Positions 36,601 to 64,000 of a DNA stretch of 64,000 nt are shown here, piece after piece. Each line of letters starts with the position of its first letter. Within the stretch, counting starts at the first letter, position 1. Under the pieces are notes generated by a model. That model worked only from the letters and a program-made list of their open reading frames with translations. It made no database searches and was not told the DNA's origin. The translations under genes and the position numbers were made by a program. The stretch is from Eledone cirrhosa (Eukaryota). Where the stretch lies: contig OZ024741.1 in NCBI GenBank assembly GCA_964016885.1, forward strand, positions 25,048,001 through 25,112,000, written 5' to 3'.

Positions 36601-39460
36601 AAACAACATAGACAGTGTCTTCTATTAGAAATATGGTAATGAAAGGGTTAAACAACATAGACAGTGTCTTTTATTAGAAATATGGTAATGACAGGGTTTA
36701 ACAACATATACAGTATCTTTTATTAGAAATGTGGTAATGAAAGGGTTAAACAACATAGACAGTGTCTTTTATTAGAAATATGTTAATGAAAGGGTTAAAC
36801 AACATAGACAGTGTCTCTTATTAGAAATATGATAATGAAAGGGTTAAACAACATAGATAGTGTCTTTCATTAGAAATATGGTAATGAAAGGGTTAAACAA
36901 CATAGGCAATGTCTTCTATTAGAAATATGATAATGAAAGGGTTAAACAACATAGACAGTTTCGTTTATTAGAAATATGGTAATGAAAGGGTTAAACAACA
37001 TAGACAGTGTCTTTTATTAGAAATATGGTAATGAAAGGGTTTAACAACATAAACAGTATCTTTTATTAGAAATATGATAATGAAAGGGTTAAACAACATA
37101 GGCAGTGTCTTCTATTAGAAATATGATAATGAAAGGGTTAAGTAACATAGACAGTGTGTTTTATTAGAAATATGATAATGAAAGGGTTAAACAACATAGA
37201 CAGTGTCTTTTATTAGAAATATGGTAATGAAAGTGTTAAACAACATAGACAGTGTCTTTTATTAGAAATGTGGTAATGAAAGTGTTAAACAAAATAGACA
37301 GTGTCTTTTATTAGAAATGTGGTAATGAAAGGGTTAAACAACATAGACAGTCTCTTACATTAGAAATATGGTAATGAAAGGGTTAAACAACATAGACAGT
37401 GTCTTCTATTAGAAATATGGTAATGCAAGCGTTAAACAACATAGACAGTGTCTTTTATTAGAAATATGGTAATGAAAGGGTTAAACAACATAGACAGTGT
37501 CTTTTATTAGAAATATGGTAATGAAAGGGTTTAACAACATATACAGTATCTTTTATTAGAAATGTGGTAATGAAAGGGTTAAACAACATAGACAGTGTCT
37601 TTTATTAGAAATATGTTAATGAAAGGGTTAAACAACATAGACAGTGTCTTTTATTAGAAATATGATAATGAAAGGGTTAAACAACATAGATAGTGTCTTT
37701 CATTAGAAATATGGTAATGAAAGGGTTAAACAACATAGGCAATGTCTTCTATTAGAAATATGATAATGAAAGGGTTAAACAACATAGACAGTTTCGTTTA
37801 TTAGAAATATGGTAATGAAAGGTTTAAACAACATAGACAGTGTCTTTTATTAGAAATATGGTAATGAAAGGGTTAAACAACATAGAAAGTGTCTTTTATT
37901 AGAAATATGGTAATGAAAGGGTTAAACAACATAGATAGTGTGTTTTATTAGAAATATGGTAATGAAAGGGTTAAACAACATAGACAGTGTCTTTTATTAG
38001 AAATATGGTAATGAAAGGGTTAAAGAACATAGACAGTGTCTTTTATTAGAAATATGGTAATGAAAGGGTTAAACAACATAGACAGTGTCTTTTATTAGAA
38101 ATATGGTAATGAAAGGGTTAAACAACAGAGACAGTGTCTTTTATTAGAAATATGGTAATGAAAGGATTAAACAACATAGAGAGTGTCTTTTATTAGAAAT
38201 ATGGTAATGAAAGGGTTAAACAACATAGACAGTGTCTTTTATTAGAAATATGGTAATGAAAGGGTTAAACAACATAGATAGTGTCTTTCATTAGAAATAT
38301 GGTAATGAAAGGGTTAAACAACATAGGCAATGTCTTCTATTAGAAATATGATAATGAAAGGGTTAAACAACATAGACAGTGTCTTTTATTAGAAGTAGGG
38401 TAATGAAAGGGTTAAACAACATAGTGTCTTCTATTAGAAATATGATAATGAAAGGGTTAAACAACATAGACAGTGTCTTTTATTAGAAATATGATAATGA
38501 AAGGGTTAAACACCATAGACAGTGTCTTTTATAGAAATATGGTAATGAAAGGGTTAAACAACATAGACAGTGTCTTTTATTAGATATATGGTAATGAAAG
38601 GGTTAAACAACATAGACTGTGTGTTTTATTAGAAATATGATAATGAAAGTGTTAAACAACATAGATAGTGTCTTTTATTAGAAATATGGTACTGAAAGGG
38701 TTAAACAACATAGATAGTGTTTTTTATTAGAAATATGGTAATGAAAGGGTTAAACAACATAGACAGTATCTTTTATTAGAAATGTGGTAATAAAAGGGTT
38801 AAACAACATAGACAGTGTCTTTTTTTAGAAATATGGTAATGAAAGGGTTAAACAACATAGACAGTGTCTTTTATTAGCAATATGGTAATGAAAGGGTTTA
38901 ACAACATATACAGTATCTTTTATTAGAAATGTGGTAATGAAAGGGTTAAACAACATAGACAGTGTCTTTTATTAGAAATATGTTAATGAAAGGGTTAAAC
39001 AACATAGACAGTGTCTTTTATTAGAAATGTGGTAATGAAAGGGTTAAACAACATAGACAGTGTCTTTTATTACAAATATGGTAATGAAAGGGTTGAACAA
39101 CATAGACAGTGTCTTTTATTAGAAATATGGTAATGAAAGGGTAAAACAACATAGACAGTGTCTTTTATTAGAAATATGGTAATGAAAGTGTTAAACAACA
39201 TAGACAGTGTCTTTTATTAGAAATGTGGGAATGAAAGTGTTAAACAAAATAGACAGTGTCTTTTATTAGAAATGTGGTAATGAAAGGGTTAAACAACATA
39301 GACAGTCTCTTACATTAGAAATATGGTAATGAAAGGGTTAAACAACATAGACAGTGTCTTTTATTAGAAATATGGTAATGCAAGCGTTAAACAACATAGA
39401 CAGTGTCTTCTATTAGAAATATGGTAATGAAAGGGTTAAACAACATAGACAGTGTCTTTT
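30650..39460. repeat. Higher-order tandem duplication in satellite, 4,405-bp unit (90 monomers)
   Basis: Rare variants recur at +4405: ATGACAGG 32287/36692, AGAAGTAGG 33990/38395, TAGCAAT 34473/38878. 4405 = 90x49-5 (one 45-bp and one 48-bp monomer). Ends are approximate. Confidence 0.88.
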
Positions 39461-40921
39461 ATTAGAAATATGGTAATGAAAGGGTTTAACAACATATACA
39501 GTATCTTTTATTAGAAATGTGGTAATGAAAGGGTTAAACAACATAGACAGTGTCTTTTATTAGAAATATGTTAATGAAAGGGTTAAACAACATAGACAGT
39601 GTCTCTTATTAGAAATATGATAATGAAAGGGTTAAACAACATAGATAGTGTCTTTCATTAGAAATATGGTAATGAAAGGGTTAAACAACATAGGCAATGT
39701 CTTCTATTAGAAATATGATAATGAAAGGGTTAAACAACATAGACAGTTTCGTTTATTAGAAATATGGTAATGAAAGGGTTAAACAACATAGACAGTGTCT
39801 TTTATTAGAAATATGGTAATGAAAGGGTTAAACAACATAGACAGTATCTTTTATTAGAAATATGGTAATGAAAGGGTTTAACAACATAGACAGTGTCTTT
39901 TATTAGAAATATGGTAATGAAAGGGTTTAACAACATAAACAGTATCTTTTATTAGAAATATGATAATGAAAGGGTTAAACAACATAGGCAGTGTCTTCTA
40001 TTAGAAATATGATAATGAAAGGGTTAAGTAACATAGACAGTGTGTTTTATTAGAAATATGATAATGAAAGGGTTAAACAACATAGACAGTGTCTTTTATT
40101 AGAAATATGGTAATGAAAGTGTTAAACAACATAGACAGTGTCTTTTATTAGAAATGTGGTAATGAAAGTGTTAAACAAAATAGACAGTGTCTTTTATTAG
40201 AAATGTGGTAATGAAAGGGTTAAACAACATAGACAGTGTCTTTTATTAGAAATATGGTAATGAAAGGGTTTAACAACATATACAGTATCTTTTATTAGAA
40301 ATGTGGTAATGAAAGGGTTAAACAACATAGACAGTCTCTTACATTAGAAATATGGTAATGAAAGGCTTAAACAACATAGACAGTGTCTTCTATTAGAAAT
40401 ATGGTAATGCAAGCGTTAAACAACATAGACAGTGTCTTTTATTAGAAATATGGTAATGAAAGGGTTAAACAACATAGACAGTGTCTTTTATTAGAAATAT
40501 GGTAATGAAAGGGTTTAACAACATATACAGTATCTTTTATTAGAAATGTGGTAATGAAAGGGTTAAACAACATAGACAGTGTCTTTTATTAGAAATATGT
40601 TAATGAAAGGGTTAAACAACATAGACAGTGTCTTTTATTAGAAATATGATAATGAAAGGGTTAAACAACATAGATAGTGTCTTTCATTAGAAATATGGTA
40701 ATGAAAGGGTTAAACAACATAGGCAATGTCTTCTATTAGAAATATGATAATGAAAGGGTTAAACAACATAGACAGTTTCGTTTATTAGAAATATGGTAAT
40801 GAAAGGGTTAAACAACATAGACAGTGTCTTTTATTAGAAATATGGTAATGAAAGGGTTAAACAACATAGAAAGTGTCTTTTATTAGAAATATGGTAATGA
40901 AAGGGTTAAACAACATAGATA

Positions 40922-41185
40922 TATTTCTTTTATTTGCCACTAGGGCATCAAAAGTGGGACAAGTACAAAGGGGGGAGTTTACACAAAAAGGCGTCCTCAA
41001 TAAGGAGGAGGCAATAACAAAATATAAAAATAAAATAAGATATAACAAAAAATAAAATTTTTAACAAAATCCTCAATAGAGAGGAGGCGCCTTGGGGGGT
41101 CGCACACACCCCCGAAAAAAGTGTGCAACCCTTCTCCTCAGGAGCACAGAGAAGGGGTGCTCCCTTGGTCTTTCATCTTCCTCAC
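40922..41185 (-). other. 3'UTR of LINE copy 1 (structured and U-rich; AATAAA at 40929-40934; no poly(A) tail)
   Basis: Lies between the ORF2 stop (41186) and the satellite junction. The sense strand ends ...GGCAAATAAAAGAAATA. The same sequence occurs in copy 2 (56765-57027) with a 1-bp deletion. Confidence 0.88.
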
Positions 41186-44100
41186 CTATAGTCTGATGTA
41201 GAGTGAAGGCCCATTCACACGGGCCATTCTCGCCACTTTCACCCATCTTTCATAGAAACGGCTGGGGTGCAGCACCTCTCTCTCCATCCTGATCCTTCTT
41301 CCGAAATGATATCGGAAGAAACGGACCAGTTGTTGGCCAGAGAGAAAGGTGCCCGACCTCAGTCCTTTCAGACGCGTCCACCATACAACCTCTTTCGCCA
41401 TGGCTATTACGCACAGAAACACCGCCTCTGCTTCATCTTTGAAGGGGGGAGGCGGCTTGATCATTACAATAGACTCGGTGGTCAACCGGATCGGTCCCAC
41501 CCTTGACAGCAGTTGTTCGACATAGCCCCACAGATCGGCTACGCCCGAGCAGTGTACTAATGCGTGTGCAACGGTTTCCTCGTCGCACACGCATCTGGGA
41601 CAGATCTTTTTGGCGGGGTCCCTACCCGGGCGCCCGTGTCTGTAGAGCCTTTCTCGAACGGGTAAAGCCCCTCGGTAGCACTGCCAGGCCAGGGACTTCT
41701 GGAAGTTGTCCATAGGTCCCGGGCTGAATGTCCTACCGAACAGGCTGGCCAGTTCGTCCTCCTCCATGTCTAGGGCTTCTCCGAGGGCGTCGTCGCACCT
41801 GCTGCGTACCAGCCCTCTATAGAATGTTGCGGTGGAGTCTCCACTGATAACCGGATCCGCCTGCCAGAGGGCGGTGAGCGCCTGGGCACACTCAGTGTGC
41901 CAGGCGCCCAGTTTTCTCGGTCTTTGCTTGACCCAGGATTGCAGCTCGGTGAGTGAGACGAGTCTGGGAAAGGTTCGTCTCACAAACGAGGCCCACACCG
42001 GTTGTCCGGTGAGGAATACGTAGAGGTGCCGTAGCCTTAATGCGTGTTTACGCATCATTAGCCACGGCATCCCCAGCCCTCCTTTCGAAGGGTGTTGACA
42101 GCAGATGGATCTCCTCACCATAGGAGCCCGCCTCTTCCAAAGGAATTGGAAGAGCGCGCGCTCCATCTTGGTGAGGGTTTCCCTTGGGCAGGGCACTACG
42201 GTCAGGCGGTAGTAGATGACGGACGCTATGTAGGTGTTCGCCACCTCCGCCCGGCCTTTCAGGGATAGTTTGCAACTGGCCCACTTCTGGGTCAGTGCAA
42301 ACACCCTGTTCGTAACCTCCGCCCAGTTTTTCTCCACCTGGAGGTCCGGTCCGAACCAGACCCCGAGCAACTTCACCGGGCCCTCCGTCCAGCGTCCGAC
42401 GACGCTATCGGAGGGCATCGGTCTGCCCCTTCACGTGCCGAGTTGCAAACCGATCGACTTGTCCCGGTTCAGCTTAGCCCCTGTGAACTTTTCGTACTCC
42501 TCCAGTAAGGTGCCGACCGCCTCGATTTCGGAGGCCGTCGACACCATTACTGTCATGTCATCGGCGTAGGCCGACACCGCTTTCCGCAATCCCGGTTCCA
42601 AAGGGATGCCCTGCAACAACTCCAACTTCCGCAGTAGTGGCTCGAGAGTCAACACATACAGAAGGGAGGAGAGAGGGCACCCTTGTCGGATGGACCGCGC
42701 GATTTTGAACGGCTCCGAGAGGTAGCCGTTCACCTTGACCCTAGAGCAGATGCGGCTGCTGTGCATAGCAGTGATCCAGCCCCTGAAAACGGGTCCGAAG
42801 CCTGCCGCCGCTAGCACCGCATCCAGGTAACCATGGTCGACCCTATCGAACGCCTTAGATTGATCCAAGTTGATCAGAGCCCCACCAAAGCCGGGTTCGT
42901 TCCCAACCCTCTCTATGATGTATCGCATGAGGTGGAGGTTGTCATGGATGGACCTGGACGGGATAGCGCATGTCTGCGCATCTCCCACCAGGTTGCCCAC
43001 GACAAGCGCCAACCTCTTTGCTAGCACCTTGGCCAAAATCTGTAACTCTGTATTTAGCAGTGTTATGGGCCTGAAGTTACTTATTTCGTCCCCCTTGTTC
43101 TCGTCCTTCCTCACTAGCGTGACTACGCCCTTGGTCACAGTACAGGGAATTCTCCCGTTCTGTTGCCAGTTGCAGTAGACCGCCTCGAGGAGATCGGGGA
43201 ACAAGTCCGGCATAGCTAGATATAATTCGTAAGGAAGACCATCGAGACCCGGGGATTTGCGTTTGCCGCATTGGCTCAGCACGTCCTCTATCTCAGCGGC
43301 CGAAATCGGCTCTTCGCAGGACTTCGCCTCCCTGTCCGAGAGGCGCGGCAGGCCGTCGAGGTATGGACCGAAGTCCACGTTCCCAACCGGCTCCCCGCCC
43401 CTCCCGAACAGTCGGGCAAAGTGCCTTTGAAAGGCCTCACACATCTGCTTAGGCTCAAGAATCGCCCGTCCATCCAGGTCTCGCAAAGACCGGATGGTGG
43501 ATTTAGTTCCACTGTTGGCCTCTGTCACGCGGGCCCAGCTAACAGCTTTGGTCCCCTCGTTCCCTAGAGCACGTATTTTACTTCGGACAACGCAGCCTTC
43601 GTGCTTCGCGTCGAAAAACTGGCTCAAAGCCGTTCTCGACGCTAGCACTCTGGCCACGTCGCCGCTTCTAATTGCCTCTTCTACTCTATCTATTAGCTCC
43701 CTTTCCTTCCTATTCCTATCCGCAGCTAGAACCTTACTAAATTCTATCGAGACTACTCTAATCTCTCTCTTTAGAGATACCCACCACCTGCTGTTGACGA
43801 TCGCTCCAGTCAACCGTTCCTTAACTAACGTACTAATCCGATTCCTGTAGGCTCTACTTGCCGGCAAGGACAAGTTGAGCTTCCAGTAACCGGGGCCCTG
43901 TCTATGAGTTCTGTCAAGGTTGACCATGCAGGTCACTAATTTGTGGTCTGAATAGCCAACAATGCGCATTTTTGGACAACTTAAAAAGTCCTTATCCTTA
44001 ATTCTAACTAAGAACCTATCTAGGTACGACCTAGATGATCCGCTACGATTTGCCCAAGTCCAGGTTGGCGCAGTCGGAAAATCTAGTCGATATCTATCGG

Positions 44101-44623
44101 CCAGGTCAAATCGACCGATTAACCCTTTGAGGCTATTACACCCCTCTCTATCGGGGCAGGCCCCTACGTAGTCCCAGCGTGCATCTAGGATACCATTCCA
44201 GTCCCCCACTAATAGCAAGGAGCGGGACGTCCCTAGAAAAGTCTCCAGACGATGGAAGAAGTCCGGCCGCATTGACCCGAAAGGGCCGTAGGCGGCTACC
44301 AACCTAAACGCTCCGCCTTTACCACTGCCAAGGTCCAGAACCACTAGTCGACCCTCCGGGTCCAAATGTACCATCTGTGTTGCGAGACCCAGATGTTTTT
44401 GCAGCAGAACGACAACTCCACCCCCACCTCCGGGCTGACAGAGAGATGCGTGCATCTCAAAGTCATCAAAGGTGGGGGCCAGCTGTCGCACGTTGCTGAT
44501 CCGGGCCTCGCAAATAACCATCACATCTATACGTTGTGACCTGAGGTCATTTAGAAGCATTGCTTGCTTCCAAGTTGAGCCCAGGCCACGCGCATTTAAA
44601 CAGCCTACTCTTAGCATAGCCAT
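41186..44623 (-). pseudogene. LINE ORF2 polyprotein (APE endonuclease, reverse transcriptase, C-terminal CCHC), about 1,145 aa, broken by one in-frame TGA at 42431-42433
   Basis: Track ORFs 42431..44647 and 41186..42418 are in the same frame. EN motifs: CLNARGL, LVGDWN, YLDRFL, SDHK. RT motifs: FRPITLLN, LDQSKAFDRV, RQGCPLS, YADD, KLLGV. Zn motif: CPRC...H...C. First ATG at 44623 in an ACCAACATGG context. Copy 2 has TGG at the stop position. Confidence 0.93.
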
Positions 44624-44647
44624 GTTGGTGGTGAAGAGAAAAGGCAC

Positions 44648-46426
44648 TTACCTCTCTGCGTCCCGGGTATCGGGCTGCACAATTTCCATTAGGGTGGGGG
44701 ATGGGTTGTTGGGTGGGGTGGTGGTTTGTGGAAGTGTGGGGGCATCAGTGTGTTGTGTGGTTGGGGAGCTTGGAGTTGTGAGGGTGTTTGGGGAGGGGGT
44801 GGGATAGTTTTTTAGGAGGACGCGGTTAATGGGCCCGACGCAGGGGGGACCCACGTCCTCTTTAAAATTGTTTTTTAAAGTTTTATAGGTGTCCTGTGGG
44901 GCCTTAATCATTTTGAGGTGGGGGAAATCCCCTGCCTGGGTGAAGTTAGGCCCTTGTGTTTTTATTAGATTGTTGTTGTACACAATGTTTAACAGTTTTT
45001 TGTTTCTTGTATTTATGTATGTGTATGCATGTTTTTGTTTTTGTGTGGTGTTTTTTGTTTGCTGTTGTGAGCTCTTTTGTGTTGGTGTCAGTGTTATGTT
45101 TTGGGGAGGGTTTTTTTTCATTTGTGTGTCTGAGGTGTGTTTTCTTTTTTTTCTTTTGATTGTGTGGAAGTGCTCCTCCTCGTCTGACGACGAACTAGGG
45201 TCATCTTCCGCGTTGGAGGGGAGGGGTATATTTTCGGGTTGTGTTTGCGGTACGGGTGTTTTGGAAATTGTTTTTGTTTTTTGAGTGGAGGGGATGGGTT
45301 GGACATTGTTTTGTTTTGGTTTGAGCTGTGGTGGTTGTTTTTGTAGTGGTAGTTGTGGTGATTGTGTTGGTTGTGCAGCTGTTGGTGGTGTAGGCAGGAT
45401 TGGGGTTTTCTTATTAAGTTGGGGACAGACAGCCCTCAGGTGACCTCTGGTTCCGCAGAGGTAACACGAGGGCCGTCTACCCTCAACGGTAATGTTGATG
45501 AAGGTTAGATCATCCAGTATGACGCGTTCAGGGATCTGGGCGATCCTTTCGGGCCTCATTTGAACTACAAGTTCGAGGCTCGTTCCACTGAACGCGTCAC
45601 CCGATGCCTTTCCCATGGACACCAGCATGTCATCCTCCAGGTCCAGAAAACCTGTCAAAACCCACCATATGTCCATAATCGGCAGGATGGTGTGGATTTT
45701 TATTTTTTGTGTTCTTCTACCCATGTACGTAGGGTAGAAGGTGTATGCGGTGGATGTGATTGGTTTGATGGACAGTTTCACTGCTGTGTCCCTGTCCTTC
45801 ATGAGAATGGATAGACTCCCGTAGAGTCTATCCTTCTGAATGAAGGTGATGTCCTTCATGACGTCTTTTAAAACCAGCTCTATCTCGCTCTGTGATGGTT
45901 GAGCTGGTTTTTTACTTTTGTTCGAGATTGTCCTAAACATGACCGTGTTTAGGAGTCTCTGGCTTTTTAGTTCCGGGGGGGAATGGATTGTGAATGAACC
46001 ATTTTCCCCGTACACTATATATTTTTTCGCATCCGCCAGTAGCTCCTTCGCTTTTGTTATATCTACTGGCAGATAGTCGAGGGTTTTCCTTGTCGTCTCG
46101 GCGAAGGAGAAATTTTGTTTGTTTGTGTTGTTGTTGTCGTTGGTGGTGTTGTTGTTATCATTGTTGTTGTTGTCACCGTTATTGGTCTTGTTGTTGTTAT
46201 TGTTATTGGTGTTGTTTTCGTCCGTCGCATTGTTGTTGTTGCTGTTGCCGCTGGTTCTTTGAGTTGTTGCCATGGCAACGTCAAGTTGTCGGTTAACAGG
46301 TGGAGAGAATTCTTCCTCTGGCTGACCTTTCTTCTTGACCTCTGCTACTGTGACAGTGGCAGGGGGAAGCTGTAAGTTCATCTTCCCCTTTCCTCCTTCG
46401 AATTTTGGTGAAGAAGCTTCGGCCAT
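44648..46426 (-). CDS. LINE ORF1 gag-like nucleic-acid-binding protein, 592 aa
   Basis: Uninterrupted ATG-to-TAA ORF upstream of ORF2. It has a CX2CX4HX4C knuckle (CYLCGTRGHLRAVC), a basic NLS-like KRKKRK after an acidic/Ser patch, an Asn-rich N-terminus and a Pro/Gln/Thr-rich C-terminus. Confidence 0.9.
   Translation of the reverse strand: MAEASSPKFEGGKGKMNLQLPPATVTVAEVKKKGQPEEEFSPPVNRQLDVAMATTQRTSGNSNNNNATDENNTNNNNNNKTNNGDNNNNDNNNTTNDNNNTNKQNFSFAETTRKTLDYLPVDITKAKELLADAKKYIVYGENGSFTIHSPPELKSQRLLNTVMFRTISNKSKKPAQPSQSEIELVLKDVMKDITFIQKDRLYGSLSILMKDRDTAVKLSIKPITSTAYTFYPTYMGRRTQKIKIHTILPIMDIWWVLTGFLDLEDDMLVSMGKASGDAFSGTSLELVVQMRPERIAQIPERVILDDLTFINITVEGRRPSCYLCGTRGHLRAVCPQLNKKTPILPTPPTAAQPTQSPQLPLQKQPPQLKPKQNNVQPIPSTQKTKTISKTPVPQTQPENIPLPSNAEDDPSSSSDEEEHFHTIKRKKRKHTSDTQMKKNPPQNITLTPTQKSSQQQTKNTTQKQKHAYTYINTRNKKLLNIVYNNNLIKTQGPNFTQAGDFPHLKMIKAPQDTYKTLKNNFKEDVGPPCVGPINRVLLKNYPTPSPNTLTTPSSPTTQHTDAPTLPQTTTPPNNPSPTLMEIVQPDTRDAER
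46126..46240 (-). repeat. Degenerate (AAC)n trinucleotide tract encoding poly-Asn/Thr in ORF1
   Basis: Plus strand shows TTG/GTT runs; translation NSNNNNATDENNTNNNNNNKTNNGDNNNNDNNNTTNDNNNTN. Confidence 0.85.
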
Positions 46427-46640
46427 TTAAAAAAATATTGACTTTTCAACAAGAAAAAACTTTTTTTTTGTTTAACTATTTCGCCTAAAGGCGTAGAATA
46501 TTTTGAGAGACTGACCAGATCAAAGTTTGACCTGGCAGTCCCTCTACAAAATGGTACAAAAATTAAAGTTATCAGACAAGAATTTCTATAGAAATTTAAA
46601 CAGAACTTACTCAGCAGGTTATACGCGTGTGTCCATCCCA
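46427..46640 (-). promoter_or_regulatory. 5'UTR of LINE copy 1; putative internal promoter region
   Basis: Non-satellite, non-coding sequence upstream of the ORF1 ATG, containing inverted repeats. Promoter function is inferred only from general LINE biology. Confidence 0.55.
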
Positions 46641-46642
46641 GA

Positions 46643-46658
46643 GATAGATAGATAGATA
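46643..46658. repeat. (GATA)4 microsatellite at the 5' junction of LINE copy 1
   Basis: ...CATCCCAGA GATA GATA GATA GATA TACAGTATCTTTT... read directly. Confidence 0.95.
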
Positions 46659-49600
46659 TACAGTATCTTTTATTAGAAATGTGGTAATAAAAGGGTTAAA
46701 CAACATAGACAGTGTCTTTTATTAGAAATATGTTAATGAAAGGGTTAAACAACATAGACAGTGTCTTTTATTAGAAATATGGTAATGAAAGGGTTAAACA
46801 ACTTAGACAGTGTCTTTTATTAAAAATATGGTAATGAAAGGGTTAAACAACATAGATAGTGTCTTTCATTAGAAATATGGTAATGAAAGGGTTAAACAAC
46901 ATAGGCAATGTCTTCTATTAGAAATATGATAATGAAAGGGTTAAATAACATAGACAGTTTCGTTTATTAGAAATATGGTAATGAAAGGGTTAAACAACAT
47001 AGACAGTGTCTTTTATTACAAATATGGTAATGAAAGGGTTGAACAACATAGACAGTGTCTTTTATTAGAAATATGGTAATGAAAGTGTTAAACAACATAG
47101 ACAGTGTCTTTTATTAGAAATATGGTAATGAAAGTGTTAAACAACATAGACAGTGTCTTTTATTAGAAATGTGGTAATGAAAGTGTTAAACAAAATAGAC
47201 AGTGTCTTTTATTAGAAATATGGTAATGAAAGGGTTTAGCAACATATACAGTATCTTTTATTAGAAATGTGGTAATGAAAGGGTTAAACAACATAGACAG
47301 TGTCTTTTATTAGAAATATGTTAATGAAAGGGTTAAACAACATAGACAGTGTCTTTTATTAGAAATATGATAATGAAAGGGTTAAACAACATAGATAGTG
47401 TCTTTCATTAGAAATATGGTAATGAAAGGGTTAAACAACATAGGCAATGTCTTCTATTAGAAATATGTTAATGAAAGGGTTAAACAACATAGACAGTTTC
47501 GTTTATTAGAAATATGGTAATGAAAGGGTTAAACAACATAGACAGTGTCTTTTATTAGAAATAGGGTAATGAAAGGGTTAAACAACATAGTGTCTTCTAT
47601 TAGAAATATGATAATGAAAGGGTTAAACAACATAGACAGTGTCTTTTATTAGAAATATGGTAATGAAAGGGTTAAACAACATAGACAGTGTGTTTTATTA
47701 GAAATATGATAATGAAAGTGTTAAACAACATAGATAGTGTCTTTTATTAGAAATATGGTACTGAAAGGGTTAAACAACATAGATAGTGTCTTTTATTAGA
47801 AATATGGTAATGAAAGGGTTAAACAACATAGACAGTATCTTTTATTAGAAATGTGGTAATAAAAGGGTTAAACAACATAGACAGTGTCTTTTTTTAGAAA
47901 TATGGTAATGAAAGGGTTAAACAACATAGACAGTGTCTTTTATTAGAAATATGGTAATGAAAGGGTTTAACAACATATACAGTATCTTTTATTAGAAATG
48001 TGGTAATGAAAGGGTTAAACAACATAGACAGTGTCTTTTATTAGAAATATGTTAATGAAAGGGTTAAACAACATAGACAGTGTCTTTTATTAGAAATATG
48101 ATAATGAAAGGGTTAAACAACATAGATAGTGTCTTTCATTAGAAATATGGTAATGAAAGGGTTAAACAACATAGGCAATGTCTTCTATTAGAAATATGAT
48201 AATGAAAGGGTTAAATAACATAGACAGTTTCGTTTATTAGAAATATGGTAATGAAAGGGTTAAACAACATAGACAGTGTTTTTTATTAGAAATATGGTAA
48301 TGAAAGGGTTGAAAAACATAGACAGTGTCTTTTATTAGAAATATGGTAATGAAAGGGTTAAACAACATAGACAGTGTCTTTTATTAGAAATATGGTAATG
48401 AAAGTGTTAAACAACATAGACAGTGTCTTTTATTAGAAATGTGGTAATGAAAGTGTTAAACAAAATAGACAGTGTCTTTTATTAGAAATGTGGTAATGAA
48501 AGGGTTAAACAACATAGACAGTCTCTTACATTAGAAATATGGTAATGAAAGGGTTAAACAACATAGACAGTGTCTTTTATTAGAAATATGGTAATGCAAG
48601 CGTTAAACAACATAGACAGTGTCTTTTATTAGAAATATGGTAATGAAAGGGTTAAACAACATAGACAGTGTCTTTTATTAGAAATATGGTAATGAAAGGG
48701 TTTAACAACATATACAGTATCTTTTATTAGAAATGTGGTAATGAAAGGGTTAAACAACATAGACAGTGTCTTTTATTAGAAATATGTTAATGAAAGGTTT
48801 AAACAACATAGACAGTGTCTTTTATTAGAAATATGATAATGAAAGGGTTAAACAACATAGATAGTGTCTTTCATTAGAAATATGGTAATGAAAGGGTTAA
48901 ACAACATAGACAGTGTTTTTTATTAGAAATATGGTAATGAAAGTGTTAAACAACATAGACAGTATCTTTTATTAGAAATATGATAATGAAAGGGTTAAGT
49001 AACATAGACAGTGTGTTTTATTAGAAATATGGTAATGAAAGGGTTAAACAACATAGACAGTCTCTTACATTAGAAATATGGTAATGAAAGGGTTAAACAA
49101 CATAGACAGTATCTTTTATTAGAAATGTGCTAATGAAAGGGTTAAACAACATAGACAGTGTCTTTTTTTAGAAATATGGTAATGAAAGGATTAAACAACA
49201 TAGACAGTGTCTTTTATTAGAAATATGGTAATGAAAGGGTTTAACAACATAAACAGTGTGTATTATTAGAAATGTGGTAATGAAAGGGTTAAACAACTTA
49301 GACAGTGTCTTTTATTAGAAATATAGTAATGAAAGGGTTAAACAACTTAGACAGTGTCTTTTATTAGAAATATGGTAATGAAAGGCTTACACAACATAGA
49401 CAGTGTCTTTTATTAGAAATATGGTAATGAAAGGGTTAAACAACATAGACAGTGTCTTTTATTAGAAATATGGTAATGAAAGGTTTAAACAACATAGACA
49501 GTGTCTTTTATTAGAAATATGATAATGAAAGGGTTAAATAACATAGACAGTTTCGTTTATTAGAAATATGGTAATGAAAGGGTTAAACAAAATAGACAGT

Positions 49601-52600
49601 GTCTTTTATTAGAAATGTGGTAATGAAAGGGTTAAACAACATAGACAGTCTCTTACATTAGAAATATGGTAATGAAAGGGTTAAACAACATAGACAGTGT
49701 CTTTTATTAGAAATATGGTAATGCAAGCGTTAAACAACATAGACAGTGTCTTTTATTAGAAATATGGTAATGAAAGGGTTAAACAAGATAGACAGTGTCT
49801 TTTATTAGAAATATGGTAATGAAAGGGTTTAACAACATATACAGTATCTTTTATTAGAAATGTGGTAATGAAAGGGTTAAACAACATAGACAGTGTCTTT
49901 TATTAGAAATATGTTAATGAAATGGTTAAACAACATAGACAGTGTCTTTTATTAGAAATATGATAATGAAAGGGTTAAACAACATAGATAGTGTCTTTCA
50001 TTAGAAATATGGTAATGAAAGGGTTAAACAACATAGGCAATGTCTTCTATTAGAAATATGATAATGAAAGGGTTAAACAACATAGACAGTTTCGTTTATT
50101 ACAAATATGGTAATGAAAGGGTTAAACAACATAGACAGTGTCTTTTATTAGAAATATGGTAATGAAAGTGTTAAACAACATAGACAGTATCTTTTATTAG
50201 ATATGTGGTAATGAAAGGGTTAAACAACATAGACAGTGTCTTTTTTTAGAAATATGGTAATGAAAGGATTAAACAACATAGACAGTGTCTTTTATTAGAA
50301 ATATGGTAATGAAAGGGTTTAACAACATAAACAGTATCTTTTATTAGAAATATGATAATGAAAGGGTTAAGTAACATAGACAGTGTGTTTTATTAGAAAT
50401 ATGGTAATGAAAGGGTTAAACAACATAGACAGTCTCTTACATTAGAAATATGGTAATGAAAGGGTTAAACAACATAGACAGTATCTTTTATTAGAAATGT
50501 GGTAATGAAAGGGTTAAACAACATAGACAGTGTCTTTTATTAGAAATATGGTAATGAAAGGGTTAAACAACTTAGACAGTGTCTTTTATTAGAAATATGG
50601 TAATGAAAGGGTTACACAACATAGACAGTGTCTTTTATTAGAAATATGGTAATGAAAGGGTTACACAACATAGACAGTGTCTTTTATTAGAAATATGGTA
50701 ATGAAAGGGTTAAACAACATAGACAGTGTCTTTTATTAGAAATATAGTAATGAAAGGGTTAAACAACATAGACAGTGTCTTTTATTAGAAATATGATAAT
50801 GAAAGGGTTAAACAACATAGACAGTGTCTTTTATTAGAAATATGGTAATGAAAGGGTTAAACAACATAGATAGTGTTTTTTATTAGAAATATAGTAATGA
50901 AAGGGTTAAACAACATAGACAGTGTCTTTTATTAGAAATATGGTAATGAAAGGGTTAAACAACATAGACAGTGTCTTTTATTAGAAATATGGTAATGAAA
51001 GGGTTAAACAACATAGACAGTTTCTTTTATTAGAAATATGGTAATGAAAGGGTTAAACAACATAGACAGTGTCTTTTATTAGAAATATGATAATGAAAGG
51101 GTTAAACAACATAGACAGTGTCTTTTATTAGAAATATGGTAATGAAAGGGTTAAACAACATAGACAGTGTCTTTTATTAGAAATATGGTAATGAAAGGGT
51201 TAAACAACATAGACAGTGTCTTTTATTAGAAATATGGTAATGAAAGGGTTAAACAACATAGACAGTGTCTTTTATTAGAAATATGGTAATGAAAGGGTTA
51301 AACAACATAGACAGTGTCTTTTATTAGAAATATGGTAATGAAAGGGTTAAACAACATAGACAGTGTCTTTTATTAGAAATATGGTAATGAAAGGGTTAAA
51401 CAACATAGACAGTGTCTTTTATTAGAAATAGGGTAATGAAAGGGTTAAACAACATAGACAGGGTTTTTTATTAGAAATATGATAATGAAAGGGTTAAACA
51501 ACATAGACAGTGTCTTTTATTAGAAATATGGTAATGAAAGGATTAAACAACATAGACAGTGTCTTTTATTAGAAATATGGTAATGAAAGGGTTAAACAAC
51601 ATAGACAGTGTCTTTTATTAGAAATATGGTAATGAAAGAGTTAAACAACATAGACAGTGTCTTTTATTAGAAATATGGTAATGAAAGGGTTAAACAACAT
51701 AGATAGTGTCTTTTATTAGAAATATGGTAATGAAAGGGTTAAACAACATAGACAGTGTCTTTTATTAGAAATATGGTAATGAGAGGTTTAAACAACATAG
51801 ACAGTGTCTTTTATTAGAAATATGGTAATGAAAGGGTTAAACAACATAGACAGTGTCTTTTATTAGAAATATGGTAATGAAAGGGTTAAACAACATAGAC
51901 AGTGTCTTTTATTAGAAATATGATAATGAAAGGGTTAAACAACATAGACAGTGTCTTTTATTAGAAATATGGTAATGAAAGGGTTAAACAACATAGATAG
52001 TGTTTTTTATTAGAAATATAGTAATGAAAGGGTTAAACAACATAGACAGTGTCTTTTATTAGAAATATGGTAATGAAAGGGTTAAACAACATAGACAGTG
52101 TCTTTTATTTGAAATATGGTAATGAAAGGGTTAAACAACATAGACAGTGTCTTTTATTAGAAATATGGTAATGAAAGGGTTAAACAACATAGACAGTGTC
52201 TTTTATTAGAAATATGATAATGAAAGGGTTAAACAACATAGACAGTGTCTTTTATTAGAAATATGGTAATGAAAGGGTTAAACAACATAGACAGTGTCTT
52301 TTATTAGAAATATGATAATGAAAGGGTTAAACAACATAGACAGTGTCTTTTATTAGAAATATGGTAATGAAAGGGTTAAACAACATAGACAGTGTCTTTT
52401 ATTAGAAATATGGTAATGAAAGGGTTAAACAACATAGACAGTGTCTTTTATTAGAAATATGGTAATGAAAGGGTTAAACAACATACTGTCTTTTATTAGA
52501 AATATGATAATGAAAGGGTTAAACAACATAGACAGTGTCTTTTATTAGAAATATGGTAATGAAAGGGTTAAACAACATAGACAGTGTCTTTTATTAGAAA

Positions 52601-55600
52601 TATGGTAATGAAAGGGTTAAACAACATAGACAGTGTCTTTTATTAGAAATATGGTAATGAAAGGGTTAAACAACATAGACAGTGTCTTTTATTAGAAATA
52701 TGATAATGAAAGGGTTAAACAACATAGACAGTGTCTTTTATTAGAAATATGGTAATGAAAGGGTTAAACAACATAGACAGTGTCTTTTATTAGAAATATG
52801 GTAATGAAAGGGTTAAACAACATAGACAGTGTCTTTTATTAGAAATATGGTAATGAAAGGGTTAAACAACATAGACAGTGTCTTTTATTAGAAATATGGT
52901 AATGAAAGGGTTAAACAACATACTGTCTTTTATTAGAAATATGATAATGAAAGGATTACACAACATAGACAGTGTCTTTTATTAGATATAGGGTAATGAA
53001 AGTGTTAAACAACATAGACAGTGTTTTTTATTAGAAATATGGTAATGAAAGGGTTAAACAACATAGACAGTGTCTTTTATTAGAAATATGGTAATGAAAG
53101 GATTACACAACATATACAGTATCTTTTATTAGAAATATGGTAATGAAAGGGTTAAACAACATAGACAGTGTCTTTTATTAGAAATATGGTAATGAAAGTG
53201 TTAAACAACATAGACAGTGTGTTCTATTAGAAATATGGTAATGAAAGGGTTAAACAACATAGACAGTGTCTTTTATTAGATATAGGGTAATGAAAGTGTT
53301 AAACAACATAGACAGTGTCTTTTATTAGAAATATGGTAATGAAAGTGTTAAACAACATAGGCAGTGTCTTTTATTAGAAATATGATAATGAAAGGGTTAA
53401 ACAACATAGACAGTATCTTTTATTAGAAATATGGTAATGAAAGGGTTAAACAACATAGACAGTGTCTTTTATTAGAAATATGGTAATGAAAGGGTTAAAC
53501 AACATAGATAGTGTCTTTTATTAGAAATATGGTAATGAAAGGGTTAAACAACATAGATAGTGTCTTTTATTAGAAATATGGTAATGAAAGGGTTAAACAA
53601 CATAGACAGTGTCTTTTATTAGAAACATGGTAATGAAAGGGTTAAACAACATAGATAGTGTCTTTTATTAGAAATATAGTAATGAAAGGGTTAAACAACA
53701 CAGACAGTGTCTTTTATTAGAAATATGGTAATGAAAGGGTTAAACAACATAGATAGTGTCTTTTATTAGAAATATGGTAATGAAAGGGTTAAACAACATA
53801 GACAGGGTTTTTTATTAGAAATATGATAATGAAAGGGTTAAACAACATAGACAGTGTCTTTTATTAGAAATATGGTAATGAAAGGATTAAACAACATAGA
53901 CAGTGTCTTTTATTAGAAATATGGTAATGAAAGGGTTAAACAACATAGACAGTGTCTTTTATTAGAAATATGGTAATGAAAGGGTTAAACAACATAGATA
54001 GTGTCTTTTATTAGAAATAGGGTAATGAAAGGGTTAAACAACATAGTGTCTTCTATTAGAAATATGATAATGAAAGGGTTAAACAACATAGACAGTGTCA
54101 TTTATTAGAAATATGATAATGAAAGGGTTAAACAACATAGACAGTGTCTTTTATTAGAAATAGGGTAATGAAAGGGCTAAACAACATAGACAGGGTTTTT
54201 TATTAGAAATATGATAATGAAAGGGTTAAACAACATAGACAGTGTCTTTTATTAGAAATATGGTAATGAAAGGGTTAAACAACATAGACAGGGTTTTTTA
54301 TTAGAAATATGGTAATGAAAGGGTTAAACAACATAGACAGTGTCTTTTATTAGATATAGGGTAATGAAAGTGTTAAACAACATAGACAGTGTCTTTTATT
54401 AGAAATATGGTAATGAAAGTGTTAAACAACATAGGCAGTGTCTTTTATTAGAAATATGATAATGAAAGGGTTAAACAACATAGACAGTATCTTTTATTAG
54501 AAATATGGTAATGAAAGGGTTAAACAACATAGACAGTGTCTTTTATTAGAAATATGGTAATGAAAGGGTTAAACAACATAGATAGTGTCTTTTATTAGAA
54601 ATATGGTAATGAAAGGGTTAAACAACATAGACAGTGTCTTTTATTAGAAATATGGTAATGAAAGGGTTAAACAACATAGATAGTGTCTTTTATTAGAAAT
54701 ATAGTAATGAAAGGGTTAAACAACACAGACAGTGTCTTTTATTAGAAATATGGTAATGAAAGGGTTAAACAACATAGATAGTGTCTTTTATTAGAAATAT
54801 GGTAATGAAAGGGTTAAACAACATAGACAGGGTTTTTTATTAGAAATATGATAATGAAAGGGTTAAACAACATAGACAGTGTCTTTTATTAGAAATATGG
54901 TAATGAAAGGATTAAACAACATAGACAGTGTCTTTTATTAGAAATATGGTAATGAAAGGGTTAAACAACATAGACAGTGTCTTTTATTACAAATATGGTA
55001 ATGAAAGGGTTAAACAACATAGATAGTGTCTTTTATTAGAAATAGGGTAATGAAAGGGTTAAACAACATAGTGTCTTCTATTAGAAATATGATAATGAAA
55101 GGGTTAAACAACATAGACAGTGTCATTTATTAGAAATATGATAATGAAAGGGTTAAACAACATAGACAGTGTCTTTTATTAGAAATAGGGTAATGAAAGG
55201 GCTAAACAACATAGACAGGGTTTTTTATTAGAAATATGATAATGAAAGGGTTAAACAACATAGACAGTGTCTTTTATTAGAAATATGGTAATGAAAGGGT
55301 TAAACAACATAGACAGGGTTTTTTATTAGAAATATGGTAATGAAAGGGTTAAACAACAAATATGGTAATGAAAAGTTTAAACAACATAGACAGTGTCTTT
55401 TATTAGAAATATGATAATGAAAGGGTTAAACAACATAGACAGTGTGTTTTATTAGATATGTGGTAATGAAAGGGTTAAACAACATAGACAGTGTGTTTTA
55501 TTAAAAATATGGTAATGAAAGGGTTAAACAACATAGACAGTATCTTTTATTAGAAATATGGTAATGAAAGGGTTCAACAACATAGACAGTGTCTTTTATT

Positions 55601-56764
55601 AGAAATATGGTAATGAAAGGGTTAAACAACATAGACAGTGTCTTTTATTAGAAATATGGTAATGAAAGTGTTAAACAACATAGACAGTGTCTTTTATTAG
55701 AAATATGATAATGAAAGGGTTAAACAACATAGACAGTGTCTTTTATTAGAAATATGGTAATGAAAGGGTTAAACAACATAGATAGTATCTTTTATTAGAA
55801 ATATGGTAATGAAAGGGTTAAACAACATAGACAGTATCTTTTATTAGAAATATGGTAATGAAAGGGTTAAACAACATAGACAGTGTCTTTTATTAGAAAT
55901 ATGGTAATGAAAGGGTTAAACAACATAGACAGTATCTTTTATTAGAAATATGGTAATGAAAGGGTTAAACAACATAGACAGTGTCTTTTATTAGAAATAT
56001 GGTAATGAAAGGATTAAACAACATAGACAGTGTCTTTTATTAGAAATATGGTAATGAAAGGGTTAAACAACATAGACAGTGTCTTTTATTAGAAATATGG
56101 TAATGAAAGAGTTAAACAACATAGACAGTGTCTTTTATTAGAAATATGGTAATGAAAGGGTTAAACAACATAGACAGTGTCTTTTATTAGAAATATGGTA
56201 ATGAAAGGGTTAAACAACATAGACAGTGTCTTTTATTAGAAATATGGTAATGAAAGGGTTAAACAACATAGACAGTGTCTTTTATTAGAAATATGGTAAT
56301 GAAAGGGTTAAACAACATAGATAGTGTCTTTTATTAGAAATATGATAATGAAAGGATTACACAACATAGACAGTGTCTTTTATTAGATATAGGGTAATGA
56401 AAGTGTTAAACAACATAGACAGTGTTTTTTATTAGAAATATGGTAATGAAAGGGTTAAACAACATAGACAGTGTCTTTTATTAGAAATATGGTAATGAAA
56501 GGATTACACAACATAGACAGTATCTTTTATTAGAAATATGGTAATGAAAATGTTAAACAACATAGACAGTGTCTTTTATTAGAAATATGGTAATGAAAGT
56601 GTTAAACAACATAGGCAGTGTCTTTTATTAGAAATATGATAATGAAAGTGTTAAACAACATAGACAGTATCTTTTATTAGAAATATGGTAATGAAAGGGT
56701 TAAACAACATAGACAGTGTCTTTTATTAGAAATATGGTAATGAAAGGTTTAAACAACATAGATA
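46659..56764. repeat. 49-bp satellite array, middle block (about 206 monomers)
   Basis: Same monomer and orientation as the left block. Includes a 1,025-bp local duplication (CACAGAC at 53701 and 54726) and 45-bp and 28-bp deletion monomers. Confidence 0.99.
56753..56764 (+). repeat. Left target-site duplication of LINE copy 2 (ACAACATAGATA)
   Basis: Identical 12-mer at 58853-58864. Removing the element plus one copy restores an intact 49-bp monomer. Confidence 0.85.
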
Positions 56765-58852
56765 TATTTCTTTTATTTGCCACTAGGGCATCAAAAGTGG
56801 GACAAGTACAAAGGGGGGAGTTTACACAAAAAGCGTCCTCAATAAGGAGGAGGCAATAACAAAATATAAAAATAAAATAAGATATAACAAAAAATAAAAT
56901 TTTTAACAAAATCCTCAATAGAGAGGAGGCGCCTTGGGGGGTCGCACACACCCCCGAAAAAAGTGTGCAACCCTTCTCCTCAGGAGCACAGAGAAGGGGT
57001 GCTCCCTTGGTCTTTCATCTTCCTCACCTATAGTCTGATGTAGAGTGAAGGCCCATTCACACGGGCCATTCTCGCCACTTTCACCCATCTTTCATAGAAA
57101 CGGCTGGGGTGCAGCACCTCTCTCTCCATCCTGATCCTTCTTCCGAAATGATATCGGAAGAAACGGACCAGTTGTTGGCCAGAGAGAAAGGTGCCCGACC
57201 TCAGTCCTTTCAGACGCGTCCACCATACAACCTCTTTCGCCATGGCTATTACGCACAGAAACACCGCCTCTGCTTCATCTTTGAAGGGGGGAGGCGGCTT
57301 GATCATTACAATAGACTCGGTGGTCAACCGGATCGGTCCCACCCTTGACAGCAGTTGTTCGACATAGCCCCACAGATCGGCTACGCCCGAGCAGTGTACT
57401 AATGCGTGTGCAACGGTTTCCTCGTCGCACACGCATCTGGGACAGATCTTTTTGGCGGGGTCCCTACCCGGGCGCCCGTGTCTGTAGAGCCTTTCTCGAA
57501 CGGGTAAAGCCCCTCGGTAGCACTGCCAGGCCAGGGACTTCTGGAAGTTGTCCATAGGTCCCGGGCTGAATGTCCTACCGAACAGGCTGGCCAGTTCGTC
57601 CTCCTCCATGTCTAGGGCTTCTCCGAGGGCGTCGTCGCACCTGCTGCGTACCAGCCCTCTATAGAATGTTGCGGTGGAGTCTCCACTGATAACCGGATCC
57701 GCCTGCCAGAGGGCGGTGAGCGCCTGGGCACACTCAGTGTGCCAGGCGCCCAGTTTTCTCGGTCTTTGCTTGACCCAGGATTGCAGCTCGGTGAGTGAGA
57801 CGAGTCTGGGAAAGGTTCGTCTCACAAACGAGGCCCACACCGTTTGTCCGGTGAGGAATACGTAGAGGTGCCGTAGCCTTAATGCGTGTTTACGCATCAT
57901 TAGCCACGGCATCCCCAGCCCTCCTTTCGAAGGGTGTTGACAGCAGATGGATCTCCTCACCATAGGAGCCCGCCTCTTCCAAAGGAATTGGAAGAGCGCG
58001 CGCTCCATCTTGGTGAGGGTTTCCCTTGGGCAGGGCACTACGGTCAGGCGGTAGTAGATGACGGACGCTATATAGGTGTTCACCACCTCCGCCCGACCTT
58101 TCAGGGATAGTTTGCAACTGGCCCACTTCTGGGTCAGTGCAAACACCCTGTTCGTAACCTCCGCCCAGTTTTTCTCCACCTGGAGGTCCGGTCCGAACCA
58201 GACCCCGAGCAACTTCACCGGGCCCTCCGTCCAGCGTCCGACGACGCTATCGGAGGGCATCGGTCTGCCCCTCCACGTGCCGAGTTGCAAACCGATCGAC
58301 TTGTCCCGGTTCAGCTTAGCCCCTGTGAACTTTTCGTACTCCTCCAGTAAGGTGCCGACCGCCTCGATTTCGGAGGCCGTCGACACCATTACTGTCACGT
58401 CATCGGCGTAGGCCGACACCGCTTTCCGCAATCCCGGTTCCAAAGGGATGCCCTGCAACAACTCCAACTTCCGCAGTAGTGGCTCGAGAGTCAACACATA
58501 CAGAAGGGAGGAGAGAGGGCACCCTTGTAGGATGGACCGCGCGATTTTGAACGGCTCCGAGAGGTAGCCGTTCACCTTGACCCTAGAGCAGATGCGGCTG
58601 CTGTGCAAAGCAGTGATCCAGCCCCTGAAAACGTGTCCGAAGCCTGCCGCCGCTAGCACCGCATCCAGGTAACCATGGTCGACCCTATCGAACGCCTTAG
58701 ATTGATCCAAGTTGATCAGAGCCCCACCAAAGCCGGGTTCGTTCCCAACCCTCTCTATGATGTATCGCATGAGGTGGAGGTTGTCATGGATGGACCTGGA
58801 CGGGATAGCGCATGTCTGCGCATCTCCCACCAGGTTGCCCACGACAAGCGCC
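56765..58852 (-). mobile_element. 5'-truncated copy (2,088 bp) of the same Tx1-like LINE, copy 2
   Basis: Colinear with 40922-43010. By eye, about nine substitutions and one 1-bp indel. Same 3' end as copy 1; truncated inside the RT domain; flanked by a TSD. Confidence 0.96.
57028..58852 (-). pseudogene. Truncated ORF2 fragment (C-terminal part of RT plus CCHC domain); frame open
   Basis: The 626-aa track ORF, whose first 19 or so residues are satellite-derived. Lacks the endonuclease and N-terminal RT subdomains; RQGCPLS is altered to LQGCPLS. Confidence 0.9.
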
Positions 58853-58864
58853 ACAACATAGATA
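58853..58864 (+). repeat. Right target-site duplication of LINE copy 2 (ACAACATAGATA)
   Basis: The first A is also the next element base (copy 1 reads GACAAGCGCC-A-ACC), so the TSD is either 12 bp or 11 bp plus 1-bp microhomology. Confidence 0.85.
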
Positions 58865-61800: not shown

Positions 61801-64000
61801 TAATGAAAGGGTTAAACAACATAGTGTCTTCTATTAGAAATATGATAATGAAAGGGTTAAACAACATAGACAGTGTCATTTATTAGAAATATGATAATGA
61901 AAGGGTTAAACAACATAGACAGTATCTTTTATTAGAAATAGGGTAATGAAAGGGCTAAACAACATAGACAGGGTTTTTTATTAGATTATGATAATGAAAG
62001 GGTTAAACAACATAGACAGTGTCTTTTATTAGAAATATGGTAATGAAAGGGTTAAACAACATAGACAGGTTTTTTTATTAGAAATATGGTAATGAAAGGG
62101 TTAAACAACAAATATGGTAATGAAAAGTTTAAACAACATAGACAGTGTCTTTTATTAGAAATATGATAATGAAAGGGTTAAACAACATAGACAGTGTCTG
62201 TTATTAGAAATATGGTAATGAAAGGGTTAAACAACATAGACAGTGTGTTTTATTAGATATGTGGTAATGAAAGGGTTAAACAACATAGACAGTGTGTTTT
62301 ATTAGAAATATGGTAATGAAAGGGTTAAACAACATAGACAGTATCTTTTATTAGAAATATGGTAATGAAAGGGTTCAACAACATAGACAGTGTCTTTTAC
62401 TAGAAATATGGTAATGAAAGGGTTAAACAACATAGACAGTGTCTTTTATTAGAAATATGGTAATGAAAGTGTTAAACAACATAGACAGTGTCTTTTATTA
62501 GAAATATGATAATGAAAGGGTTAAACAACATAGACAGTGTCTTTTATTAGAAATATGGTAATGAAAGGGTTAAACAACATAGATAGTATCTTTTATTAGA
62601 AATATGGTAATGAAAGGGTTAAACAACATAGATAGTGTCTTTTATTAGAAATATGGTAATGAAAGGGTTAAACAACATAGACAGTGTCTTTTATTAGAAA
62701 TATGGTAATGAAAGGGTTAAACAACATAGATAGTGTCTTTTATTAGAAATATAGTAATGAAAGGGTTAAACAACATAGACAGTGTCTTTTATTAGAAATA
62801 TGGTAATGAAAGGGTTAAACAACATAGACAGTGTCTTTTATTAGAAATATGGTAATGAAAGGGTTAAACAACATAGACAGTGTCTTTTATTAGAAATAGG
62901 GTAATGAAAGGGTTAAACAACATAGACAGTGTCTTTTATTAGAAATATGGTAATGAAAGGGTTAAACAACATAGACAGTGTCTTTTATTAGAAATATGAT
63001 AATGAAAGGGTTAAACAACATAGACAGTGTCTTTTATTACAAATAGGGTAATGAAAGGGTTAAACAACATAGACAGGGTTTTTTATTAGAAATATGATAA
63101 TGAAAGGGTTAAACAACATAGACAGTGTCTTTTATTAGAAATATGGTAATGAAAGGATTAAACAACATAGACAGTGTCTTTTATTAGAAATATGGTAATG
63201 AAAGGGTTAAACAACATAGACAGTGTCTTTTATTAGAAATATGGTAATGAAAGGGTTAAACAACATAGACAGTGTCTTTTATTAGAAATATGGTAATGAA
63301 AGGGTTAAACAACATAGACAGTGTCTTTTATTAGAAATATGATAATAAAAGGGTTAAACAACATAGACAGTGTCTTTTATTAGAAATAGGGTAATGAAAG
63401 GGTTGAACAACATAGTGTCTTCTATTAGAAATATGATAATGAAAGGGTTAAACAACATAGACAGTGTCATTTATCAGAAATATGATAATGAAAGGGTTAA
63501 ACAACATAGACAGTGTCTTTTATTAGAAATATGGTAATAAAAGGGTTAAACAACATAGACAGGGTTTTTTATTAGAAATATGGTAATGAAAGGGTTAAAC
63601 AACAAATATGGTAATGAAAAGGTTAAACAACATAGACAGTGTCTTTTATCAGAAATATGATAATGAAAGGGTTAAACAACATAGACAGTGTCTGTTATTA
63701 GAAATATGGTAATGAAAGGGTTAAACAACATAGACAGTGTGTTTTATTAGATATATGGTAATGAAAGGGTTAAACAACATAGACAGTGTGTTTTACTAGA
63801 AATATGGTAATGAAAGGGTTAAACAACATAGACAGTATCTTTTATTAGAAATATGGTAATGAAAGGTTCAACAACATAGAGAGTGTCTTTTATTAGAAAT
63901 ATGGTAATGAAAGGGTTAAACAACATAGACAGTGTCTTTTATTAGAAATATGGTAATGAAAGGGTTAAACAACATAGACAGTGTCTTTTATTAGAAATAT
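58853..64000. repeat. 49-bp satellite array, right block (about 105 monomers; continues beyond window end)
   Basis: Same monomer and orientation. Diagnostic variants include CAGGGTTTTT and 28-bp monomers at 60150, 62084 and 63578. Confidence 0.99.

Follow-up and report, generated by a model that had tools for sequence, protein, structure and literature searches.

Preference for GATA-repeat-like DNA in a Tx1-group retrotransposon inserted in a 49-bp satellite array

Introduction

Among Tx1 elements, Kibi inserts into (TC)n, Koshi into (TTC)n, and crocodilian families into (TTCC)n or (TTTC)n, and a satellite label also appears among the targets in the available text of PMC4494074; the same text calls a LINE microsatellite-specific when more than 20% of its copies are flanked by microsatellite. 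The LINE targets listed in the available part of PMC3812793 are ACAY, AC, TC, TTC, and TAA. Insertions of R1 outside 28S occupy sites sharing 4-9 bp of identity with the true target, and among copies of the melanogaster type at such sites the full-length ones bear 7-28 bp of upstream sequence from the true target and the truncated ones acquire duplications (PMC2718515, available sections). L1-Tx1 elements are abundant in cephalopods (PMC13282606, PMC8967140, both in part), with 80 families in Octopus vulgaris, 13 of them recently active (PMC13282606); the available text and supplement of PMC13282606 and the available part of PMC8967140 give no target sequences for these families. Parts of PMC4640811, PMC5035012, and PMC8869645 were also drawn on. 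A LINE specific for GATA or TATC was not found in the literature searched; one may be listed in Repbase, in Kojima and Fujiwara 2004, or in figures or supplementary material of PMC4494074, all of which lay outside that scope.

The element described here is like Kibi and Koshi in its simple-repeat-like site preference and like R1A in the pattern of its junctions. With Kibi, Koshi, and the crocodilian (TTCC)n and (TTTC)n families it shares the combination of an APE-type Tx1-like LINE and a short pyrimidine-rich repeat (PMC4494074; PMC3812793, available text), but those families have vertebrate hosts, whereas its own host is probably a cephalopod and its unit is TATC/GATA. Kibi and Koshi occupy (TC)n or (TTC)n, whereas the repeats at the junction of this element are TATC and neither copy studied lies inside a microsatellite. 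The comparison with Kibi and Koshi is an analogy and, since its repeat unit differs, the element is not assigned to them. Drosophila melanogaster-type R1A likewise has target-like off-target sites, upstream target on full-length copies, and duplications on truncated copies (PMC2718515, available sections), but R1A belongs to the R1 clade, targets rDNA, and is known from many copies, whereas the present element offers one such junction and a presumed true target. The cephalopod L1-Tx1 families have their group and probable host lineage in common with it (PMC13282606, in part).

The satellite array and the two copies

The window, meaning the whole 64-kb stretch that was analysed, consists of a 49-bp satellite with higher-order structure (1140 monomers) and two interruptions, both formed by the same minus-strand element (Table 1). 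Monomer spacings of 49, 48, 45, 77, and 97 were observed, and no spacing of 53 bp occurs among the satellite monomers of the window. GATA-type monomers number 104 of 1140 across the window and 2-6 of 40 locally. A perfect 8-base match to (GATA)n is found at 104 of 112,224 satellite strand-positions, all on the plus strand and all in GATA-type monomers. No satellite monomer in the window has two GATA units.

Table 1. Coordinates of the array, the two element copies, and their junctions in the window
Feature	Position	Strand	Remarks
Satellite array, left domain, higher-order repeats	1..40921	+	GATA-type monomers 71/834
Target half-site of copy 1, ACAACATAGATA, in GATA-type monomer	40910..40921	+	Higher-order context independently predicts GATA type
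Copy 1, non-LTR retrotransposon, L1/Tx1 group, apparently full-length	40922..46642	-	Ends ambiguous by a few bases
3' UTR, copy 1	40922..41185	-	AATAAA 40929-40934, a few bases short of target
ORF2: APE endonuclease, reverse transcriptase, C-terminal zinc motif	41186..44623	-	Pfam
ORF1, 592 aa, Asn-rich N-terminus, CCHC zinc knuckle	44648..46426	-	Pfam E 0.051, short of cut-off; motif visible
5' UTR, copy 1	46427..46642	-	Long hairpin 46505-46544
(GATA)4 = GATAGATAGATAGATA	46643..46658	+	(TATC)4 on element sense strand, immediately before 5' end
Satellite upstream (element sense) of copy 1	46656..56764	+	Starts in non-GATA ATATACAGTATC-type monomer, sister lineage
Copy 2, 12-bp target-site duplication, left	56753..56764	+	ACAACATAGATA
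Copy 2, 5'-truncated	56765..58852	-	RT frame open
Copy 2, 12-bp target-site duplication, right	58853..58864	+	Normal monomer sequence follows
Satellite array right of copy 2, 49-bp	58853..64000	+	GATA-type monomers 12/101

Copy 1 has neither a poly(A) tail nor a target-site duplication. The CCHC zinc knuckle of its ORF1 lies at residues 320-336, and ORF2, which retains the catalytic motifs and carries one in-frame stop (42431-42433), matches Exo_endo_phos (E 2.4e-8), RVT_1 (6.5e-26), and zf-RVT (6.4e-6; at 27.2 bits slightly below the 27.5 cut-off). The 5' UTR contains a putative 67-nt intron, with GTAAGT from 46610 to TAG at 46544 on the minus strand, directly preceding the 40-nt hairpin; the 5' UTRs of relatives have similar donor and acceptor motifs and hairpins. 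Rfam gave no match at gathering score in the 5' UTR, and between 40800 and 46900 there was no sign of a self-cleaving ribozyme that might mark off a leader at the 5' end, five weak Rfam matches there being all far below gathering score. At its 3' end the element reads AATAAAAGA (40922-40934), which resembles the monomer just upstream of the site, so that the 3' junction nearly rebuilds the target. Mimicry of the satellite by this end was considered and judged weak; AATAAA(A)G terminates the 3' UTR in eight of nine relatives examined.

The two copies differ by nine substitutions and one indel over about 2090 bases (0.5%), and because the differences are few and the flanks unlike, they are most likely independent and recent insertions. 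Seven of the nine substitutions (41186-43010 versus 57028-58852) change a residue, as expected of unselected decay after insertion. That the insertion of copy 1 is young follows from this divergence and from its left flank, which over 490 bases is identical to two sister repeats.

Relatives of the element

Protein searches with ORF2 gave a best match at 69-71% identity, followed by Argonauta hians (62-63%) and Acanthosepion pharaonis (48%); the closest named relatives are cephalopod proteins, which makes a cephalopod host likely. A profile built from 17 relatives matched human L1 ORF2p with an E of 2e-115 and R2 proteins with 1e-37 or weaker; judged by such sequence comparison, the reverse transcriptase is nearer to L1 than to R2-type elements. 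An ORF2 with APE, RT, and zinc motif, an ORF1 with zinc knuckle, and sequence-preferring insertion with a short duplication place the element in the L1/Tx1 group. A CCHC zinc knuckle in ORF1 is a feature of the Tx1 clade.

A scan of genome contigs yielded 54 loci of eukaryote-type LINEs in bacterial MAG records, at scan identities of 27-43%; the RT of the relatives fetched is at most about 53% identical to that of the element, the nearest about 50%. A quick RT tree, with SH-aLRT support only, was built from 63 rows, comprising the RT of the window element, 20 ORF2s (taken from 19 of the 54 loci), and 42 of 184 proteins. It groups the element with two cephalopod-named proteins and with loci arranged as head-to-tail arrays, in a clade of 31 rows (SH-aLRT 100). 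Deeper links in this tree are weak (87), and its 63 rows include no named Tx1 references, for which the relatives at U1, U2, and tRNA sites are surrogates only. The endonuclease hairpin loop governs target specificity, and in this region the element differs from its tandem-array relatives. At least three GATA units were found at none of the 54 related loci (593,244 bases), and a preference for GATA, if real, would therefore be confined to the closer lineage. Protein searches with frames crossing the 5' and 3' junctions, as copies reading into (TATC)n would have, returned no matches, a result that carries no information given how seldom frames of this kind are predicted.

Several of the related loci are of interest in their own right. 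In L001-L038 and L053, several related LINE families, their ORFs mostly intact, are strung head to tail in long tandem arrays; the contigs belong to a bacterial MAG record, in which they are apparently eukaryotic carry-over. Tx1-like elements lie at U1 snRNA genes in L039, L044 (2170-2190, 7720-7735), L046, and L048, and these insertions use two sites, one at the 5' end of the gene with a 13-bp duplication and one within it; U1 is absent from the targets given in the Fig. 3 legend of PMC4494074. In L043 (2990-3182) a 5'-truncated U2 fragment follows an element with 36% RT identity and begins at the site described for Keno, the U2 snRNA-specific Tx1 element, and in L047 an element lies among tRNA-Gln and tRNA-Gly genes. 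This association of the more distant loci with U1, U2, and tRNA genes is typical Tx1 behaviour. Keno and the other Tx1 elements that target RNA genes are on branches distant from the present element and have different targets.

Insertion sites in GATA-type monomers

Both copies have the same 3' junction, ACAACATAGATA followed directly by the element, in the same phase and in both cases in a GATA-type monomer. The chance that both sites would be of GATA type is 0.008, or about 8e-5 with the shared phase and strand if the insertions were independent, figures that refer to two insertions in a window not chosen blind to the element. The T that defines a GATA-type site derives from the target: GATA follows in seven of the eight best matches to the left 245 bases of copy 1, and GATT in one, while the flanks of copy 2, taken together, correspond to an uninterrupted, empty site of GATA type near 53.5 kb. 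Over all phases and either strand of the consensus monomer, the target phase is the single best match to (GATA)n. The insertion site is thus the same in two of two copies, and the preference of the element for GATA-repeat-like DNA is well supported.

What the normal target might be is a separate matter. An earlier note on this DNA proposed a (GATA)n-specific LINE that spills over into the satellite, and a preference for GATA-like DNA holds at both 3' junctions; in the window, no copy lies within a (GATA)n tract (0 of 2) and a microsatellite tract adjoins only one of the four junctions. No additional GATA units are present at the 3' junction of either copy. Both junctions being in GATA-type monomers, they leave a microsatellite target and a satellite target unseparated, and the case for (GATA)n as the primary target is about evenly balanced.

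The element could instead be specialised on the satellite, reading the GATA-type monomer directly; the extra units at copy 1 would then have been added while the 5' end was being joined, the RT slipping on the TATCTAT overhang or repeatedly jumping template there. Both known copies are located in satellite, and the 'Sat' label in the Fig. 3 legend of PMC4494074 points to Tx1 families that target satellites. The RT would have to slip at least two to three times in succession on 1.75 units, ACAAC would have to be lost, and the hybrid monomer needed is absent from the array, which has no spacing of 53 bp; nor is the likeness of the 3' end to the monomer clear mimicry. We consider this reading unlikely.

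Origin of the GATA tract at copy 1

The earlier note had recognised at the 5' junction of copy 1 a (GATA)4 foreign to the satellite monomers, and the tract is real, although its strictly non-satellite portion can be narrowed to at least 13 bases (46643-46655). It forms part of a 17-base run, AGATAGATAGATAGATA, beginning at 46642. The string GATAGATA has three plus-strand matches in 64 kb, all within this run, and the tract of copy 1 is alone among plus-strand sequences of the window in having two or more GATA units; one TATCTATC occurs inside ORF2. For 13 specified bases at a given site, the chance is 1.7e-7 at the composition of the window. The flanking monomer variant ATATACAGTATC (29 copies) has the final ATA of the tract (46656-46658) in common with it, a 3-base microhomology; the flank boundary lies at 46656 or alternatively at 46660. 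On the element side, an imperfect unit, TCTC, joins the tract to unique sequence. In strand and unit the tract agrees with the TATCTAT that opens the 3' flank.

The same note contrasted the two copies, and here too it was right: the 12-bp duplication is present at copy 2 and absent from copy 1, and so occurs in one of two copies. The right flank of copy 1 breaks the higher-order phase of the left flank, and its best match still has 6 mismatches in 245 bases. Copy 1 stands between related sub-arrays, an arrangement that calls for a deletion when it inserted, for exchange between two copies, or for a mis-join. The monomer joined at its 5' end has no GATA unit and matches (GATA)n at 6 of 8 positions, compared with 7 of 8 for the consensus monomer. 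This junction corresponds to base 7 of the 12-base overhang, as would be expected if a cDNA ending in GATA annealed there and a five-base flap was trimmed.

Two mechanisms had been suggested for the tract, UAUC repeats carried over in the RNA from the donor site and slippage of the RT on the target. Because the joined monomer is without a GATA unit, the tract could not be produced by slippage on it, and as the ACAAC of the duplication is also missing, an RNA-borne (UAUC)n leader is the better fit of the two. The nine-mer ATAGATATA complicates this choice. It occurs at 40915, 46652, and 56758, that is at all three junctions, and nowhere else in the window. A hybrid site present before insertion and offering a 7-base template could, through a short duplication, have left it at the two ends of copy 1, in which case slippage would be possible; this would favour an element specialised on the satellite and count against a (GATA)n home.

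The nine-mer would also be compatible with a donor arranged head to tail, in which the leader comprised the last bases of an upstream copy and a (TATC)n spacer, and the flank boundary would be 46660. It is shared by the 5' end of copy 1 and both 3' junctions, the next monomer type is preceded by a GACA-type monomer in all eight of its other occurrences, and sister lineages form tandem arrays. The informative bases number only 2-4, however, and the ATATACAG monomer (29 copies) accounts for them without a tandem; a (TATC)n spacer would moreover still imply a GATA target and make this arrangement, itself very unlikely, a variant of the preferred account.

Another reading, which we think quite improbable, is that the element itself carries (TATC)3-4 as a constant portion of its 5' end, inherited regardless of the donor and serving as an annealing pad for TATCTAT sites, so that copies need not occupy microsatellites. 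One full-length copy cannot set the true 5' boundary of the element, and the TCTC unit connects the tract to unique sequence. Such a leader is absent from the full-length elements among the relatives (0 of 54 loci), all of them distant, and for annealing an element specialised on the satellite would presumably be better served by the monomer's own sequence.

Finally, the tract might have grown after insertion through slippage of DNA polymerase, or the junction might be an assembly artefact, the phase break across copy 1 being a mis-join of two near-identical copies. A mis-join would account for the missing duplication but not for the tract. As for growth, none of the 104 GATA-type monomers has gained a unit, yet 13 monomers have lost four bases (45 bp; for example at 25666, 47552, and 52448); the insertion is young, by the divergence and flank identity given above; and the slippage threshold quoted for tetranucleotides is four units (PMC3812793, available text). 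These possibilities appear the most remote of those considered.

Proposed mechanism

As a single account of the junctions of copy 1, an element at home in (GATA)n with an RNA-borne leader does best, and has perhaps an even chance of being correct. The element would be a Tx1-type LINE with an endonuclease that favours GATA repeats, inserting by target-primed reverse transcription; the first nick would fall at ATAGATA or close by, on the strand that reads GATA, and the second about 12 bases away. Its usual home would probably be the (GATA)n microsatellite, with monomers containing ATAGATAG acting as near-cognate sites for spill-over. Full-length RNA would begin with some 13-16 nt of (UAUC)n taken from the donor site. 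The cDNA of copy 1 would then have ended in GATA repeats and annealed by microhomology at the most GATA-like position of a monomer, erasing the duplication; as the monomer used belongs to the other sub-array, a deletion at insertion or a later exchange between two copies would be required as well. Copy 2, truncated and without a leader, would have been left with its clean 12-bp duplication.

Against a (GATA)n home, there is a single full-length junction among two insertions, and no copy lies within a GATA tract in the window. Among the related loci, 0 of 54 have at least three GATA units, and the nearest form head-to-tail arrays. The monomer joined at the 5' end is a poorer match to (GATA)n than the consensus, and if it marks a separate insertion, that insertion was outside a GATA-type monomer.

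Implications

GATA is a common tetranucleotide repeat in animals. The principle involved is already known, as RNA leaders derived from the target, and several Tx1 families that insert into microsatellites or satellites, have been described; what the present locus hints at is a new target for a known kind of element, in that GATA microsatellites would be its normal home. If so, GATA would be added to the targets of LINEs and microsatellites would be linked to the turnover of satellite arrays. The GATA and GACA monomers would also provide a natural one-base test of how an APE endonuclease reads its site. A broader scheme, which we regard as doubtful, is that of a cephalopod Tx1 lineage with a (GATA)n-specific endonuclease able to discriminate between GATA and GACA monomers at a single base. 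It would pass from microsatellites into a large higher-order satellite, where its RNA leader would seed GATA tracts and where the priming of its 5' end on out-of-phase monomers would itself bring about the deletions that define the sub-array boundaries.

Two features of the array may be added. Copy 1 (40922-46656) forms a border in the array: the higher-order domain to its left is highly homogenised, and the domain to its right, though related, is more heterogeneous. The four-base losses of the 45-bp monomers coincide with the ATAG/ACAG position that the element targets.
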